IMG/VR virus record: IMGVR_UViG_2534682094_000013
Length of the DNA: 14,710 nucleotides
Direction: 5' to 3' (one strand)
DNA from: a virus
Taxonomy: Duplodnaviria; Heunggongvirae; Uroviricota; Caudoviricetes
The notes under the pieces were generated by a model, which made no database searches, was not told the origin of the DNA, and saw only the letters and a program-made list of their open reading frames with translations. Below, piece after piece: positions 2,844 through 14,710 of the stretch (position 1 is the first letter of the stretch; every line of letters begins with the position of its first letter). The position numbers and the translations under genes were made by a program.

Positions 2844-3403
2844 GCGTTTACTCTCAGATTATCAATTAAATGAATGACCGGGGCAGGGAAATAATCCCCT
2901 TCGACAATAATGGACTCCGGGGTGTAGGGATAAACCGTCAGGGCATCGCCGTGATAGCATCCCGTACCAACGAAAATATTTCCGTTCACACTCAGGCTGA
3001 TCGCCAGCCCTGTCAGATGGCGACTTACTGGTTTTGCATCCGCAATAAGGCGCTCAAGTTCCTGATACATTTCATCTGTGATGCCCTGATCAAGTACTCC
3101 GACAACAATGCGAAATGTTCCCGGCTCCTCGTTGAGTTGCCACCACTCCTTTACTTCAATCAGGTAGCCGAGAGGCTCCACGGCTCTTCGCAGTGCGCTG
3201 ATGGTCCCTTTGTGTCGGTGTATCAGCCATGCATCACGAATAACCTGTCGCTTTGTCTCTTCCGGCCAGTTGCGATCCCAGCGGTCAACGGAAAAGCCCA
3301 GGCGAGATAAGGCAGCAGATGCACCGGGCAGGTGTCCGGCGACCACAGCGTGTTGAGGTCTACCGGAATGTCTGTAATGCGTGTTCCGACGGCTTCGGCA
3401 CAA
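2840..3403 (-). CDS. Baseplate assembly protein gpI (largest frame; true N-terminus in another frame starting near 3447)
   Basis: Translation SVDRWDRNWPEETKRQVIRDAWLIHRHKGTISALRRAVEPLGYLI... matches P2 gpI. The gpI N-terminus (MSNSLLPP...NTLWSPDTCPVHLLPYLAWAF) is in the 3223..3480 ORF frame, so a 1-nt frameshift lies near 3290-3310. Confidence 0.75.
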   Translation of the reverse strand: MCRSRRNTHYRHSGRPQHAVVAGHLPGASAALSRLGFSVDRWDRNWPEETKRQVIRDAWLIHRHKGTISALRRAVEPLGYLIEVKEWWQLNEEPGTFRIVVGVLDQGITDEMYQELERLIADAKPVSRHLTGLAISLSVNGNIFVGTGCYHGDALTVYPYTPESIIVEGDYFPAPVIHLIDNLRVNA

Positions 3404-7836: not shown

Positions 7837-8287
7837 TCAGAGATGGCCCAGCTCACATCCGCCACAAATCCGATGTCTGTATATCCAGGCGTCCGCCCGG
7901 CGGTCGCCCTTGTCCGTTGTGTCTGCATCACGATAACGCTCCAGAATCAGGGCGCGCGTGGCGGTATAAACAGCATTGCGCCAGTGCCAGAGATTGACGC
8001 TTTCTCCGTTAATTACGGGTGCCGGAACATCGGCCAGCGTCTGATGGCCAGCGCCTGCTGTTCCTGCTGCCAGCTTCCAGCTCGCGGGTAACGTGTGCCA
8101 CGCCCCGGTGGCTATGCAGCAGGCGGGAGGTGGTCACCGCCCGGCAGTCGTACCGCCAGACGCAGTCCGCAGCACAATATCCGGCCAGAATGCACCCGCT
8201 GAAATCGGGTATCCCATCATCGGTATCGGTGATGTCGTCCTCTGCGGGTCCGGGGTTGGTTCTGGCAACCATACTCATGGGGTTCAC
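7837..8287 (-). pseudogene. Head completion protein gpL-like, frameshifted
   Basis: The position between M and X, and a Cys-containing N-terminal fragment (8009..8287: ...DFSGCILAGYCAADCVWRYDC...), suggest gpL. A second frame (...LWHWRNAVYTATRALILERYRDADTTDKGD...ICGGCELGHL*) ends at 7837. The exact junction is unresolved. Confidence 0.5.
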
Positions 8288-8372
8288 TCCTGAAAAAATC
8301 GGGCGGTGGGTGCGCGGTGTAAACGGTCACGGAGTCAAACCGGAACACCGCGCACGCCGCCCGCTGACGGGG

Positions 8373-9153
8373 TCAGTCGTTAACCGCGCTTCGCCTTCTG
8401 CGTCGCGGTGGTTTTTCGTGTTGCAGGCTTCCGCGTTGTCTTTTTACTTTTGCTGCTTTCGTCCTGCGCCTGCTGTGCGCTGGCGTCTTCTGGTCGGCTG
8501 CGGAATCGGCTTTTTTCAGGGCGCGGGAAAGGGTTGCAATCTCGCGTTTCACACCTGCGTTCGGGTTCAGGTGCATGCTTCGCGCAGCAGCTTCAGTGAA
8601 GGCCATGTGTCGCATCTCAGCCACGCGGGCAAAGGCGCACGCTTGCATAATTTGGCGCGACTTCGTCCGGCATGTCCTGGTCGGTGACAATCTCCGGAGG
8701 GTGTCCAGGGTTCGATAAAGGCGGAAAATCCGCGTCGGCATCCGCCCGGCCTGCGTCAGTACCGGTTCAGATTTCTTCGGTCAGACGTGGCAGCAGTACG
8801 GCCAAAGTTATCCGGCATATGAGGTTTGACGGACCACATACGCCCATACGCACGCAGCGGAAGATCGCCCAGTCAATCGCCCACACCATCAGCGTGGCAA
8901 TCACTTCATCCTGCTGCCCGCCGTCAGCCTCCAGCGTTCCCTCAATCCAGCCGGAAAAATCCGGCAACAACTCTTTTTTGATGGCGGCTTTCGCGCTTCT
9001 GGCCTGTACGCCCTTAAGCCGGGCCTGTGCCAGACGCAGACGATACAGCACCTCTTCATGCGCGGTACGCGCGGCGTGGTCCACGCCTTCATTCGCCCGG
9101 CCTGCGCGCTGTGCCATCACGTTCTGCCAGTGTTGCTGTGCAGGAGTAATCAT
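8373..9153 (-). pseudogene. Terminase small (endonuclease) subunit gpM, at least two frameshifts
   Basis: N-terminal fragment 8767..9153 (MITPAQQHWQNVMAQRAG...KKELLPDFSGWIEG...) and C-terminal fragment in 8373..8741 (...HLNPNAGVKREIATLSRALKK... with a basic tail) both match P2 gpM. The middle lies in another frame. Confidence 0.8.
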
Positions 9154-9170
9154 TTGTTCTCTCCGTTACA

Positions 9171-9189
9171 GGCGGGCATGATGCCCGCC
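9171..9189. other. GC-rich hairpin in the N-M intergenic spacer
   Basis: GGCGGGCA-TGA-TGCCCGCC: 8-bp perfect stem with 3-nt loop, between the capsid gene stop (9216) and M start (9153). No U-tract on the transcribed strand. Confidence 0.35.
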
Positions 9190-9215
9190 GTGAGTTGATT
9201 AGCTGTCGGCGAACT

Positions 9216-10250
9216 TCAGACCAGTGACCATGCGCACTTGCCATAGTCTTCAACGACATAAGCGTCATTGATGGACTGGTAGGTGGCGATGCGGTTGTAT
9301 TCCGGCTCGTCTTTCATCAGGCGACGCATTGAGCCTCTCTGCCAGTAAATTGACAGGTTGTTGAATGAGGTGATCAGCATCGTTGCATCCGGGAAGAACG
9401 GCGCAAGGAATACATCCAGCCCGCCAATGGTGCGCGATGACAGGATGAGCTGTCCGGCGAGTAATTCCGCATTGGGATTCTGGCCGCTGATGCTGTTCAG
9501 CACGGGCAGGCGTAGCGAGTTAAACAGGTTGCGCCCCATAATCACCACGAGGTCGTCAGCTTCCTTGTGCCATTCATCCAGCAGGGATGAGCGTGCGTCC
9601 TGTACCAGTGCATCAGCGTTCGCATACTTACCCGCGTGCGCCACGGTGTTGTCCATGTTGCGGGAGGTCAGCGTCACGTCATTCATAACGCGCTCGCTGG
9701 CGTCGGTTCTGATGTGCTCCAGCCAGCCCACGTTAACGTCCTGAAGCAGCTTGTTGGTGCTGAAGTTGGACTCATCCGCGTGAGACGTGCCGTTGAAACC
9801 GATCATGATGCGGTCAAGCGCCACCTGTCGGGCAATCTGTGCGCTGATGCGGGACTGAAAATCAGGGTGTGCCGACCAGGCATCAAGCTTCGGATACGAA
9901 ATAAACGTGTCGTAGTTCACCTGTTCGCACTGGTATTTGCGGTTTTTCAGATCAACCACGTTATTCGGGTTACGGCGTTTTGTGCCGTCATAACTGGTAT
10001 TCGTGCGTGCAATTGGCCCGGTGGTGTCCAGGAGGATTTTTTCGCCTTTCTGGTCGGTCACGCCGATCACGTTAATTCTTTTTGTAAATTCGGTACTTTC
10101 CTTTGAGGCGTTTTCAAAACGCTGCTGTACCGAGGGTTCCACGGTAAATCGCGATACCAGTGCAGATACCGGGATATTGTTAAGCGACGCCTGCTGCGCC
10201 ATATAGCAACCCAGCTTGTTGCGGGTAATATCTGACATCACCAGATTCAT
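9216..10250 (-). CDS. Major capsid protein gpN
   Basis: Intact ORF with strong P2 gpN similarity throughout (FTVEPSV...QKGEKI...NRKYQCEQVNYD...LQDVNVGWL...DDLVVIMGR...MLITSFNNLSIYWQ...YVVEDY). Start is taken at ATG 10250 (AAGGAG 8 nt upstream), not the track's 10304. Confidence 0.9.
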   Translation of the reverse strand: MNLVMSDITRNKLGCYMAQQASLNNIPVSALVSRFTVEPSVQQRFENASKESTEFTKRINVIGVTDQKGEKILLDTTGPIARTNTSYDGTKRRNPNNVVDLKNRKYQCEQVNYDTFISYPKLDAWSAHPDFQSRISAQIARQVALDRIMIGFNGTSHADESNFSTNKLLQDVNVGWLEHIRTDASERVMNDVTLTSRNMDNTVAHAGKYANADALVQDARSSLLDEWHKEADDLVVIMGRNLFNSLRLPVLNSISGQNPNAELLAGQLILSSRTIGGLDVFLAPFFPDATMLITSFNNLSIYWQRGSMRRLMKDEPEYNRIATYQSINDAYVVEDYGKCAWSLV

Positions 10251-10272
10251 AAAAATTTGCTCCTTTGTCTTA

Positions 10273-11047
10273 TCAGAAGTCAGCCAGCTGGTCGGAGGCT
10301 GCACCTGTTGCGGTGAACCGGTTCTGCGGATCGCCGTCCTGCGTGCGCAGTTTTTCCTTCAGTGCTGTCAGCTCTGTGGTCAGTGACGTGATTTTCTGGC
10401 GGTCCTGCTGATGGCGGGTTTCCAGCACATTAAAACGGTCGATAATGTCGGCCTGTGACGTTGCGACCCTTCCACGCTTCCTGAATACGGGAGAAACTGG
10501 CGTCATCCGCTTTGCGGCCACGACCAATAATCCCCATACGCGGTTAAACCACTGGGTGCCTTCTTCCTGCGTTGTTCGATTCGATATTCGACTCATGCCG
10601 GAACGCTCCCCTGACGTTGAAGTCATAGCTACGTTGTGTGCCGAAACAGCGTCGTGCCCAGGCTGCGGGGTGTCGGTCATGCCAGCCCGCAGTAGGCCCC
10701 CGTAGGACTGGGTCAGTCATACTGGAATAGATTTTCTTGCCGTCCGCGACAAGCTGCTTCATGCGCTCGGTCGGTTCGATTTCTGCATACAGCGCAGTAC
10801 GTCCGGCCAGCGGACCTTCCGTAATGTCTTCCGTACTCAGTGCGGTGACATCGCCCATTGCGGAAAATTCGCTTGACGGGCATGGCGAGAGATAGTGCTC
10901 AACGTTCACGCGGGCAGCGTAAACATCCGGGTTGAAGTTCTCGGCGGCTTCACGCAGATGTACCGGGCTGATTTCGCGGCCATCAACAGTTGATCCGGAG
11001 ACAGCCACGCGAAACTTTTTGCGGGATGTCTTTTTTTCATTAGCCAT
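10273..11047 (-). pseudogene. Capsid scaffold protein gpO, frameshifted
   Basis: N-terminal fragment in 10544..11080 (MANEKKTSRKKFRVAVSGSTVDGREISPVHLREAAENFNPDVYAARVNVEHY...) and C-terminal fragment in 10273..10680 (...LTTELTALKEKLRTQDGDPQNRF...) match gpO. The centre is out of frame, and the 775-nt span is not a multiple of 3. Confidence 0.8.
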
Positions 11048-11201
11048 AGTTTTTGCCCCTCTGACTGGTTCTTCAGTCATGATGGCAAAGCGTAACAGGC
11101 TGACACAAAGGGCTTTTGTTGTAAGAAAACGGCCAGAACAGGGGGTTAAGGAGAACAGTTTCGCGCGCGGGTAATCTTCCTGTAATTACTCAGGGGGAGC
11201 A
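11048..11201. promoter_or_regulatory. Divergent intergenic region between O (-) and P (+); expected site of the two late promoters
   Basis: 154-bp gap between divergently oriented operons. Contains an imperfect dyad ACAAAGGGCTTTTGT (about 11104..11119) and a strong SD (GGGGGAG) before the P start. In P2 both late promoters here depend on Ogr; no consensus match is claimed. Confidence 0.4.
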
Positions 11202-12940
11202 ATGATTCAGGACGCTTTTGTGCGCCAGCGTGCGCGGCAACTTTACTGGCAGGGTTATCCGCCCGCAGAAATATCACGTCTGATGGGAATAAACCCGAAC
11301 ACGATTTATGCGTGGAAAAAACGCGACCAGTGGGATGAAACGCCACCCGTGCAGCGTGTCACGCAGTCCATCGATGCGCGCCTCATCCAGCTCACTGAAA
11401 AACAGAATAAAACAGGTGGTGACTTCAAGGAAATAGACCTGCTGACCCGGCAGCTTAAAAAACTGCATGATGGCCAGCCGGATGTGATGGCCGCAGGAAA
11501 GAAAGGCCGGGCGAAAAAACTTAAAAATCATTTCACGCCGGAACAGATTGCCGCACTGCGGGAAAAAATCATCAGCAGGCTGGAGTGGCATCAGCGGGGC
11601 TGGTTTGACTCCCTGACACTTTGCAGGGAAGCCGGGATACGTAACAGGATGATCCTGAAATCCCGACAGATTGGGGCGACCTGGTATTTTGCACAGGAAG
11701 CCTGCTGATGGCGCTGCGTGACGATGTGGCGCAACCTTACCAGCGTAACCAGATTTTTTTGTCTGCGTCGCGTCGTCAGGCGTTCCAGTTTAAAAGCATT
11801 ATTCAGAAGGCCGCGGCTGAAGTTGATGTGGAGCTGAAAGGGGGCGATAAAATCATCCTCTCCAACGGCGCAGAGCTGCATTTTCTCGGCACTTCTGCTG
11901 CGTCGGCACAGTCCTATACGGGCAATTTTTATTTTGATGAATTTTTCTGGGTCAGTCGCTTTGCCGAACTGCGCAAGGTGGCTGGCGCTATGGCAACCCT
12001 CAGCGGACTGCGGCGCACCTACTTCTCCACGCCATCCACCGAAACGCACGAGGCTACGCCTACTGGAACGGCGACCGCTGGAACGAGAAAAAGGCCCGCA
12101 TAAACGCCAGCGTTTTTCTGTGGACTGGAAAACGCTGCATAACGGGCTTATCTGCCCTGACCGGACTGGCGGCAAATTGTCACGCTGGAAGATGTGGTTA
12201 ACACGGCTGGAAACACACCAATATCGACGAAATTCGTGATGAAAACACCGAAGACGAGTTCCTCAATCTCTATATGTGTGAGTTTGTCCGCGAAGGGGAA
12301 TCGGCATTTAACCTGAATATCCTGATTGGCTGCGGTGTTGACGGATACGACGACTGGAAAGACTGGAAACCTTTTGCTCCCCGCCCATGGGGAATCGTCC
12401 GGTATGGATTGGGTATGACGCAAACGGCAGCAGTGGCAACGGCGACAGCGGCGCTGTGTCCGTGGTGGTTCCTCCGGCTGTTCCTGGTGGCCGTTTTCGA
12501 ACGGTGGAACGCGACGCGTTCAGGGGCTGGAGTTTGAAGAACAGGCCAGAGTCATTGAAGAGTTCACGTGTCGCTACAACGTGGAACACATCGGCATTGA
12601 TGTGACGGGCGGGAACGGGGAGGCTGTTTATCAGATAGTGAACGTTTTTCCCTGCGCTATTCCGTACACCTTCACGCTGTCATCAAACGGTCGCTGGTAC
12701 TGAAAATGCTGCAAATAATGCGTGCCGGCGTGGGAATACGATCGCGCCGAACGCGAGCTGGTCGCGGCCTTTAACGCCGTGCGTAAGGTGAAAACACCGG
12801 GCGGCTTTATCACTTACGAAACGGACCGCGCGAGGGGGATCAGCCACGGCGACCTTGCGTGGGCAACCATGCTTGCTGTCATTAACGAACCAATTGGCGG
12901 CGAAGGAGAAAACGAGCGTTTCACGGTTATGGAGTTCTGA
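11202..12940 (+). pseudogene. Terminase ATPase (large) subunit gpP, at least five frameshifts
   Basis: Fragments 11202..11708, 11708..12103, 12274..12537, 12387..12605 and 12722..12940 each match consecutive parts of P2 gpP (QLYWQGYPPAEI..., NQIFLSASRRQAFQFK...GNFYFDEFFWV..., MCEFVREGESAFNLNILIGCGVDGYDDWKDWKPFAPRP, GNRPVWIGYDANGSSGNGDS..., ...SHGDLAWATMLAVINEP...). The 1739-nt span is not a multiple of 3. Confidence 0.85.
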
Positions 12941-13983
12941 TGAGCAGAAAAAATAAAAAAGTGCGCATGAGTTCACGCATTGATCTCGCTGATGCGCTCA
13001 GGAAAGAATCGTCGCTCAGTGCATTCACATTTGATGGCCTTATCGCCTGACCGGGCATGACCTGCTGGATAATATGTACTGTGCTGATAACGGGCGGTGG
13101 TATGAAACCCCGGTGGACTGGTACGGTCTGGCAAGAGCTGCCCGGCAAACGTCCTGGCATCAGTCTGCGCTTTACTTTAAGCGCAATGTATTGCTCGGTT
13201 GCTACATCCCGCACCCGCTGCTTTCCCGGCAGGATTTCTCGGCGTGGCGCTGGACTGGTTTGTGTTCGGTAACGCATTCCTTGAGCTTCGGAGCAATATG
13301 CTCGGCGAACCACTTAAATTACGGCACGCACTGGCGAAATACATGCGACGCGGAAGCGATCTTGAATCATGGTGGTATGTGCAGGATGGCAAGGACGCGT
13401 TTCAGTTTCGCCCTGGCAAAGTGTGCCACCTGATGAATCCGGACATTAACCAGGAAATTTACGGCATGCCGGAATATCTTGGCGCATTACTCTCGGCCAG
13501 CCTGTCTCATTCGGCGGACATGTTCAGAAAACTGTATTACGACAATGGATCCCACGCCGGGTGCATCATCTACATCGGTGCAGCGCAGGTAAACCGCGAA
13601 AGCATGGACTCCCTGAAAGAAACGTTACAGGGTGCGCGTGGTGGTGGGCGTTTAAAAACGTGCTCATCCATGCGCCCAACGGGGGCAAAGAGGGGGTGCA
13701 AATTTTGCCGTTCCAGCAGATCACCGCAAAGGATGAGTTCATGAATGTTAAGGCGGCATCCCGTGATGATGTGCTGGCTGCGCACCGCGTTCCGCCGCAA
13801 CTGATGGGGGCGATGCCGGGCGAAAAAAGTGCGTTTGGTGATGTGGAGAAGGCCGCGCGGGTTTACGCAATTAACGAGCTGATGCCCGTCATGGAGGCCA
13901 TGAAGCACATCAATGACTGGCTTGGCGAAGAGGTGATCCGCTTTAACCCTTACGCACTGTTAGACACCCAGCCCACATCCTGA
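12940..13983 (+). pseudogene. Portal protein gpQ, at least three frameshifts
   Basis: ATG at 12940 overlaps the P stop (ATGA). gpQ-like segments lie in frames 12940..13048 (MSRKNKKVRMSS...), 13074..13433 (...NGRWYETPVDWYGLA...YFKRNVLLGCYIPHPLLSRQDFS), 13199..13744 (...DWFVFGNAFLE...NPDINQEIYGMPEYL...YYDNGSHAG...) and 13561..13983 (...KNVLIHAPNGGKEGVQILPF...AAHRVPPQLMG...). Confidence 0.85.
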
Positions 13984-14009
13984 CGCGCTTCGCTTGTCTG
14001 CTGCTTCGC

Positions 14010-14034
14010 CGGGGCATAAAAAATTTATGCCCCG
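14010..14034. other. Perfect hairpin just downstream of the portal gene (possible terminator or protein-binding element)
   Basis: CGGGGCATAAA-AAA-TTTATGCCCCG: 11-bp perfect stem, 27 nt after the Q stop. No flanking T-tract on either strand. Confidence 0.4.
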
Positions 14035-14407
14035 ACTCTCCAGCTCCTGTATCAGTCAGATAATTTCACGACGCTTTCCTGCTTATTGCCATCATCGACA
14101 GTCAGACTCTTACGCAATCCCACCGCGTTGACTGCATGTTCTCGCCGTCTCAGTGCGATTTTGACGGCCTTACCTTTCACCCCATCAAATCAAAAGCCCT
14201 CACGTCTTTTTCACGCTCAGCGTGAGAAATATAGCCATTCTGTTGTGTCGCTGCGACATCGTTCAGGGGATGCTATTTACCCCCTGAAACGCGGGCTGTT
14301 CCCCCGTCACCTGCGCGCAGAAAAAACGCGTTTTTTTGTGCACGCACGGATCCTTGACGGATCCAGCCGCCATGCGGGCCGGAAGGGCAAAAAGTCGTTC
14401 AAAAAAA

Positions 14408-14434
14408 TTGTGCAAATTTGTGCACTATTGTGCA
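14408..14434. repeat. Three direct TTGTGCA repeats phased at exactly 10 bp
   Basis: TTGTGCA at 14408, 14418 and 14428 (aTTGTGCAaat TTGTGCActa TTGTGCAaac), at the point where composition switches to AT-rich. Confidence 0.5.
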
Positions 14435-14557
14435 AACCGAACGGAGTGTTTATTTATAGAAAAATTGAGCCTATGTATACGACGTTGCTTATAAATACAT
14501 CCCTGACTGTTATGTGAAAATATGCAAAGAAAATTACATGCTATGGAGATGAGAGTT

Positions 14558-14597
14558 ATAACGACCTTTTCTACTTATTTGTAAAAGAGGTCGTTAT
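14558..14597 (+). promoter_or_regulatory. Hairpin that would sequester the SD and start codon of the downstream small ORF
   Basis: 5' arm ATAACGACCTTTT (14558..14570) pairs with 3' arm AAGAGGTCGTTAT (14585..14597): 13 bp with one G-U pair, 14-nt loop. The 3' arm contains AAGAGG and the AT of the ATG at 14596. Confidence 0.4.
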
Positions 14598-14691
14598 GTA
14601 TAAAGTTAAATTATTTTTTACTCTTGATATGTGTAAAAAATATAGCTTTGATGTTTATATTTTATTAGAATACATTATTTATCCTCTTTAA
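14596..14691 (+). CDS. Hypothetical 31-aa peptide (MYKVKLFFTLDMCKKYSFDVYILLEYIIYPL)
   Basis: ATG preceded by AAGAGG at 6-nt spacing; 31 codons to TAA at 14689..14691, in the AT-rich terminal segment. Not in the supplied track (under 60 aa). Could be a chance ORF. Confidence 0.3.
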   Translation: MYKVKLFFTLDMCKKYSFDVYILLEYIIYPL

Positions 14692-14710
14692 TGATTTTGT
14701 TATAGTCAAA

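Follow-up and report, generated by a model that had tools for sequence, protein, structure and literature searches.

A predicted cos packaging site between the portal gene and the cargo hotspot of a P88-like Escherichia coli prophage

Genomic context

The window, a stretch of 14,710 nucleotides from IMG/VR record IMGVR_UViG_2534682094_000013, is identified by its sequence identity as a P88-like E. coli prophage (Xuanwuvirus, Peduoviridae, P2 family). Identity is 96–97% both to P88 and to E. coli prophages; for the last 811 bases it is 94–97% to P88-like phages and at most 99% to E. coli prophages. In P88, P88_4B11 and E. coli MS20654, the scaffold and capsid genes lie on the minus strand and the genes for terminase P and portal Q lie on the plus strand. 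A non-coding stretch follows Q, and beyond it are variable genes and the replication gene A on the minus strand. As this gene order is the P2 map reversed, the non-coding stretch occupies the position of the P2 cos site, past the 3' end of Q and ahead of the variable region that precedes gene A.

The relatives encode cognate terminase genes, with gpM 37% identical to P2 M and gpP 44% identical to P2 P, while the portal protein is 47% identical to P2 gpQ. Alignment with the P88 portal coding sequence places one-nucleotide deletions in the Q gene of the window after 13036, 13244 and 13647, and the window copy of terminase P is also frameshifted. Compared to the prophage of E. coli MS20654, positions 8018–13647 contain 119 single-base deletions and one insertion. 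The deletions are concentrated at 8052–8869 and 10467–10718, three of them affecting portal Q and several affecting terminase P, and most of the late genes consequently appear as frameshifted fragments. None falls within 13984–14437. The pattern suggests poor sequence quality more than genuine decay, a degraded prophage being the less likely reading.

The features of the region are as follows (U, no strand assigned).

12937–13983, plus strand: portal gene Q, 97% identical to the P88 portal coding sequence and broken by three 1-nt deletions
14010–14034, U: hairpin with perfect 11-bp arms CGGGGCATAAA/TTTATGCCCCG, 27 nt past the Q stop codon; positional equivalent of P2 tQ and 186 tW
14211–14225, U: palindrome TCACGCT-C-AGCGTGA, lineage-specific and outside the shared cos module
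14246–14258, U: palindrome TGTCGC-T-GCGACA, lineage-specific and outside the shared cos module
14290–14313, U: predicted cosN with core GGGCTGTTCCCCCGTCACC at 14293–14311 (reverse complement GGTGACGGGGGAACAGCCC), nicks uncertain by a few nucleotides
14311–14320: CTGCGCGCAG, adjoining AAAAAACGCGTTTTTT (the palindrome A6CGCGT6) at 14321–14336
14314–14330, U: GC dyad and A-tract between cosN and the T-run, equivalent by position to P2 CGCCCGCTTCACGGGGCGG
14331–14343, plus strand: T7 then GTGCAC, the first TTGTGCA motif; nearly invariant and the equivalent of TTTTAATGCA in P2, 186 and P4
14344–14374, U: variable spacer with ACGGATCC-TTG-ACGGATCC, in which only GATCC of the first copy is semi-conserved
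14346–14353 and 14357–14364: the two copies of the ACGGATCC direct repeat, with TTG between them
14375–14394, U: GGGCCGGAAGGGCAAAAA, moderately conserved; rival candidate for the cut site
14399–14435, plus strand: TCAAAAAAATT then GTGCAA, GTGCAC and GTGCAA (14410, 14420, 14430) at an exact 10-bp spacing; right edge of the module
14438–14710, minus strand: start of the variable cargo hotspot, AT-rich, with the 3' end of an AAA-family ATPase gene from about 14675

Coding status and palindromes

The region from 13984 to 14437 is non-coding. Seven frames were examined across 60 distinct homologues, namely those of six ORFs in the region and that of P88 gp21, and a third-codon-position excess was absent from all of them. 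The four ORFs submitted matched no family in Pfam or PHROG, and a search of the region against Rfam matched no RNA family. An ORF of 143 codons had been set aside as probably not a gene in an earlier note made from the sequence of the window, and this ORF indeed shows neither a coding signal nor a Pfam or PHROG family. The small hypothetical coding sequences annotated here in P88 and in phage Chuche are probably spurious as well, since the ORFs lack both a coding signal and a family match.

The same note drew attention to a concentration of palindromes at 13984–14400. Each palindrome and direct repeat that it listed was found in the window, and its coordinates were accurate except for two palindromes placed one base low, which lie at 14211–14225 and 14246–14258. 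Four perfect inverted repeats (minimum arm 6, maximum loop 4) were observed in 13984–14400, whereas 0.47 ± 0.74 were expected from 1000 dinucleotide shuffles (P = 0.002). Among 131 tiles of this size taken from elsewhere in the window, none reached four.

The interval between the portal gene and the module

The hairpin at 14010–14034 is a GC-rich stem-loop that directly follows the last gene of its operon. Its folding energy is –22.2 kcal/mol on the plus strand (z = –4.4) and –28.9 kcal/mol on the minus strand (z = –6.95). Terminators are annotated after the portal gene in P2 (tQ) and 186 (tW), at the end of the late P-Q operon, and the window resembles both in having a stable hairpin right after the portal stop codon. 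Unrelated GC hairpins occupy the equivalent post-portal position in Enterobacter phage phiT5282H, E. soli pENTAS02 and E. coli ES1. The window hairpin differs from tQ and tW in that its lower stem is A/T-rich and no U-tract follows the stem, which is succeeded by ACTCTCCAG on the plus strand and by GCGAAGCAG on the minus strand. These two properties make intrinsic termination doubtful, and a terminator scan did not call the hairpin. From its position and stability, 14010–14034 may be regarded as a putative terminator-type element at or past which late P-Q transcription would stop. Between about 13950 and 14250 the plus strand is rich in C and poor in G (GC skew –0.26 to –0.35), so that Rho-dependent termination in this tract may be entertained as speculation.

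From about 14040 to 14289 no alignment is possible between lineages, and the two palindromes within this interval are consequently lineage-specific. Both are kept in close relatives and missing from the satellite and plasmid copies described below, and the RNA fold of the 14211–14225 palindrome is unexceptional. In the proposed arrangement, these approximately 250 bp would act as a lineage-specific spacer that separates the hairpin from the cos module.

In phage PhiR44_2 (L261, 586–1195), a 635-bp insertion lies between portal Q and the hairpin, at about window position 13958–13980. It encodes a 174-aa gene on the opposite strand together with a canonical bidirectional terminator. An insertion on the Q side is also present in vB_EcoM-569R5, 705R2 and several E. 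coli genomes, and insertions of this type constitute a second small cargo site on the Q side of cos. The finding matches the published description of the Q-to-cos interval as an insertion hotspot (PMC5694545).

Boundaries and anatomy of the probable cos module

The limits of the module may be deduced from sequences that share little else with the window. In Enterobacter phage phiT5282H and E. soli pENTAS02 the shared segment is confined to about 14290–14434 (74–76% identity), and the Salmonella plasmid pSA20083530.2 shares only 14293–14434 (76% identity). A recurrent family of integrated satellites shares only 14275–14434 (81% identity), which for its members L015, L130 and L136 is the sole DNA homology to the helper. 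The intersection of these segments, 14293–14434, defines a self-contained unit. In P2 and P4, likewise, cos is the only DNA in common (PMC9122126). Judged on its sequence and position, 14290–14435 (about 142–145 bp) is very probably the self-contained cos module of the P88-like prophage, and we consider it equally probable that 13984–14437 as a whole comprises the non-coding Q-to-cos interval and this packaging site. The reading draws on the observed boundaries of the module, its conservation, its colinearity with mapped cos sites and its occurrence in satellites and plasmids. The core of the module was found in 1150 of 5426 complete E. coli genomes (approximately 21%).

Conservation was read from 100 distinct IMG/VR cores and seven divergent sequences. 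Three parts are nearly invariant: CG(C/T)GGGCTGTTCCCCCGTCACCTGCGCGC at 14290–14318, TTTTTTGTGCA at 14332–14342 and TCAAAAAAATTGTGCAAATTTGTGCACTATTGTGCA at 14399–14435. The first is the most conserved block, being nearly unchanged in approximately 130 prophage-type copies (54 distinct variants). The variable parts are 14320–14330, which is the A-run arm of A6CGCGT6, and 14344–14374. The GC dyad at 14314–14330 overlaps CTGCGCGCAG and the left arm of A6CGCGT6; within it, GCGCGC is conserved while the A-run and CGCG differ between lineages.

Of the six copies of TTGTGCA in the window, four begin at 14336, 14408, 14418 and 14428, and these four are all on the plus strand. The last three form an array that is nearly invariant among helpers, satellites and plasmids and that is the equivalent of ATGCAAnnnnATGCACC...TGCA in P2, 186 and P4. 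The segment 14399–14435 is presumed to be a binding array for gpM, the small terminase subunit. Its three GTGCA repeats share one helical face and, together with the single GTGCAC, most likely position this subunit.

The earlier note had placed a packaging site in the stretch past Q, and a cos module does lie there, between portal Q and the variable cargo. Its range took in most of the module, which continues past 14400 to 14435. The palindromes, in which it saw candidate sites for terminase or host factors, correspond poorly to the conserved working parts, as most of them lie elsewhere. Those at 14211–14225 and 14246–14258 fall outside the shared segment and cannot be aligned between lineages, and the ACGGATCC repeat belongs to the variable spacer inside the module. 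Only the pair CTGCGCGCAG/A6CGCGT6 is within the core; its GCGCGC and T-run are conserved, but the A-run arm, and hence the symmetry, is not. The two most conserved elements, GGGCTGTTCCCCCGTCACC (14293–14311) and the TTGTGCA repeats, three of the four past 14400, had been missed.

Comparison with the mapped cos sites of P2, 186 and P4

The cos sites of P2, 186 and P4 have 19-nt 5' cohesive ends and a 55-bp core (Ziermann and Calendar 1990, as cited in PMC5694545 and PMC9122126). They too lie between portal Q and a variable hotspot and represent the sole DNA common to helper and satellite. In the orientation of the window, their layout begins with GCGCGC(A/G), the 19-nt cohesive end (GTGCTTTCCCCGCCTCGCC in P2) and a 19-nt GC dyad, and continues with TTTTAATGCA, a variable 67-nt spacer and ATGCAAnnnnATGCACC..TGCA. 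The window presents GGGCTGTTCCCCCGTCACC, a 19-nt GC dyad with an A-tract, TTTTTTTGTGCA, a 68-nt spacer and GTGCAAatttGTGCACtattGTGCAA. The order is the same and the distances are nearly so: a C-rich 19–21-mer, a GC dyad of about 19 nt, a T-run with TGCA, and a spacer of 67 or 68 nt, after which three (A/G)TGCA(A/C) motifs at a spacing of about 10 bp close the module.

Sequence and architecture both indicate homology to the P2/186/P4 core. The two best matches of a profile built from the 100 P88-type cores were the cos junctions of P4 (E = 0.009) and 186 (E = 0.048), each colinear over 130 nt. A global alignment of the P88-type and P2-type consensus sequences scored z = 4.9 (P = 0.002, permutation test), and T7-GTGCAC aligns column for column with the P2-type motif. 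When ten sequences were aligned, including intermediate sites from Arsenophonus plasmids, the alignment was nearly gap-free and the mapped cohesive end of P2, 186 and P4 was positioned opposite window 14293–14313. Alignment with the cos regions of P2-like phages had been recommended in the earlier note as a check, and its outcome is a colinear, nearly gap-free match with P2, 186 and P4.

At the level of individual elements the divergence is considerable. The window has GTGCA in place of ATGCA, and the reciprocal search with a P2-type profile (109 cores) found no match in the window. The best match in the region to the 19-nt cohesive end GGCGAGGCGGGGAAAGCAC is 13/19, at 14293–14311 on the minus strand, a score that about 10% of shuffles of the region reach and that is not significant by itself; when the P2/186 19-mers were scanned over the whole window, 14/19 was reached elsewhere by chance. 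A diverged cos is to be expected, since identity to the P2 terminase subunits is only 37% for gpM and 44% for gpP. The earlier search for a cohesive end came up empty; a probable diverged homologue lies at about 14293–14311. Further differences are the distance from Q to cos (about 310 bp in the window versus about 170 bp in P2), the cargo genes, which in the window read towards cos and not away from it, and the ends themselves, which are mapped for P2, 186 and P4 and predicted from sequence for the window.

Two other placements were considered and discarded. Equating window CCGTCACCTGCGCGCAG with the P2 left flank CCGTCAGCGCGCA (a cut after 14320) is contradicted by full-length alignments, which put the segment opposite the P2 dyad. 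A symmetric cut at the large imperfect palindrome of 14312–14346 was likewise discarded, since conservation does not extend to its left arm.

Lambda cos (cosQ-cosN-cosB, including R sites and a site for IHF), which has a 12-nt overhang, is similar in that a nicking site lies beside phased repeats for the small terminase subunit; sequence, terminase family and arrangement are unrelated. An IHF consensus, read by eye, was not found in the region, TTCAAAAAAATTG being one base off in spacing. The cos of Ralstonia phage phiRSA1, of the P2 family, is 5'-GGTGAGGCGGGGTCCAAC (PMC5694545). It starts with GGTGA, as does the predicted GGTGACGGGGGAACAGCCC, but only about 10 of 18 positions are identical to the predicted window sequence.

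Predicted location of the cohesive ends

It is likely that the cohesive ends are cut at 14290–14313, where the terminase (gpM and gpP) would introduce staggered nicks at approximately these positions. Apart from the alignment, deletions in two phage-named records whose sources are apparently phage particles point to this block. LR595891 lacks 14291–14295, its only indel in 3.5 kb relative to P88, and phage Chuche (PP925824) lacks 14296–14302. These different small deletions, both inside the 14290–14318 block, may be assembly scars at genome ends.

A scan of metagenome contigs gave partial support only. The 19-mer is held by 115 contigs, about 8 of which are unrelated chance matches, and a contig end lies within 100 nt of it in only two, both phage-sized and P2-like. 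PPYF01370356.1 (32,523 bp) starts 3 nt before the 19-mer, equivalent to 14290, and ERZ1643251 NODE_1134 (31,753 bp) starts 22 nt before it, equivalent to 14271. A second copy of the 19-mer was not found at the far end of PPYF01370356.1; this contig may therefore start at a break made by the assembler near cos instead of at a filled-in end. LR595891 (P88_4B11) is a linear record that starts and ends exactly at 14389|14390 with zero overlap. The breaks of records and contigs cluster in 14271–14390 and do not fix the nick positions.

The break in LR595891 raises the alternative of a staggered cut at about 14371–14389 (GGGCCGGAAGGGCA), between the single and the triple GTGCA, with 14293–14311 as a flanking recognition element. 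The stretch around this alternative cut is rich in G, as is P2 cos, and shows moderate conservation. However, it is replaced in E. coli ES1, which keeps all of the other blocks, and its GGCAAAAA part aligns with GGCAAAAAC in the P2-type spacer, about 100 bp from the mapped ends. No metagenome contig ends about 78 nt past the 19-mer, and the two distinct deletions at 14291–14302 in phage-named records would be left unexplained. The break itself could reflect a physical end followed by trimming of an overlap of about 94–99 nt. A cut at 14371–14389 is thus unlikely, and 14290–14313 is retained as the predicted site.

Alternative interpretations of the conserved region

The palindromes could instead be operators or other transcription-control sites, bound by a repressor or by an Ogr/Delta activator, for the late or cargo genes; an operator cluster had been the second suggestion of the earlier note. 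Their density is above chance, and those at 14211–14225 and 14246–14258 are kept in close relatives. However, the palindromes could not be brought into alignment across other lineages, conservation of A6CGCGT6 does not extend to its A6 arm, and a search of both strands of 13984–14600 found no promoter-like site. The elements that are conserved are direct repeats and a non-palindromic C-rich block. By direct reading, TGT-N12-ACA, which is taken here to be the form of an Ogr site, is absent from the GTGCA array. Moreover, the module occurs in plasmids and satellites without any phage gene. Control of transcription is accordingly a very improbable role for the palindromes.

That the region is conserved merely by recent common descent, with chance or neutral palindromes of no function, is scarcely credible: most E. 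coli copies are 95–99% identical, so that conservation within this set says little, but the core keeps 72–81% identity in other genera, satellites and plasmids amid flanking DNA that is entirely unrelated, and the spacing of its elements matches that of the mapped P2-type sites.

The interpretation as a cos region makes it an ordinary feature of a common P2-family prophage, expected rather than surprising. Literature searches on cos in P88 and Xuanwuvirus, on P88_4B11 and on the predicted cohesive-end sequence returned nothing relevant, and the searchable literature contains no description of this P88-type cos sequence. The features given above amount to a working map of the packaging signal, which belongs to a group of prophages that occur in about 21% of complete E. 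coli genomes, and they show where the defence-gene hotspot starts relative to the signal. The short cos sequence flags satellites and plasmids that are likely moved by P88-type phages, with uses in annotation, in the prediction of phage-mediated plasmid transfer and in packaging vectors.

Satellites and plasmids that carry the module

The satellites and plasmids that bear cos, the former with a capsid gene of their own, are more interesting leads than cos itself. The integrated satellite family includes L015 (3148–12140; E. coli ETEC6333, NZ_CP122600.1), L114, L130, L136, L292, L320 and L328, with L300 and L359 as diverged members. Its genes encode an integrase, a toprim primase, an Ogr/Delta-like zinc finger, an Icd-like protein and a 236-aa protein, as well as a capsid protein of 423 aa that is 36% identical to the helper gpN and has a 120-aa N-terminal extension. 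A blastp comparison against P4 identified no homologues of Sid or Psu in the family. A P4-style satellite with its own capsid protein seems unusual.

The Salmonella plasmid pSA20083530.2 (NZ_CP030205.1; L262, 4623–4763) contains a complete P88-type cos module. It is a non-mobilizable plasmid of 33,467 bp with an IncFII RepA, partition and toxin-antitoxin genes and IS elements, and tblastn found no P2-like proteins in it. Since its size fits a P2-type capsid, pSA20083530.2 may be a natural cosmid that is moved by a helper phage.

A cos-like module is also carried by plasmids of Arsenophonus nasoniae (six matched), which are 40–63 kb with TrfA or RepA replicons. In L011 and L012 (about 2880–3050), the module is intermediate between the P2 and P88 types and consists of GCCTCGCAC GCCTGCCCG..., TTTTTTGTGCAGTTGCAC and four TGCA at 10 bp. 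Two circular records deposited as plasmids contain P2-like genome DNA together with the module: E. soli pENTAS02 (L009, 32.6 kb) has terminase, portal and replication endonuclease genes, and in E. coli pZ1323PEC0009-2 (L263, 34.5 kb) the match to the prophage spans the module. Partition genes of the ParM type are encoded by P88 itself. Given these genes and the circular plasmid records, some members may be phage-plasmids or assembled excised circles.

In the proposed mechanism, a replicon that carries the cos module would be packageable by a P88-type helper. Tentatively, then, the 142-bp module could act as a portable packaging ticket well beyond the phage. If P88-type helpers do package carriers of the module, there would be a natural network of cosmids and satellites built on a cos type that is so far undescribed and occurs in roughly one in five E. 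coli genomes.

The cargo hotspot

In about 1130 of 1148 E. coli records, homology stops at 14434–14437, where the GC content falls from about 0.55 to 0.17–0.33. This boundary coincides with that of the published defence hotspot adjoining cos (PMC9122126). The cargo of the window (14438–14710; L003, 6776–9336) comprises an AAA-family ATPase of 565 aa and a DNA adenine methylase, both read towards cos. Cargo of this type is common to only 14 of the 1148 records, and for this rarity it may be considered a candidate defence cassette in a known hotspot. In the contigs L125 and L346, the cos module and the same ATPase/methylase cargo occur without an upstream portal gene. Both contigs have a truncated replication gene followed by an integrase, and they may represent a decayed or rearranged prophage.
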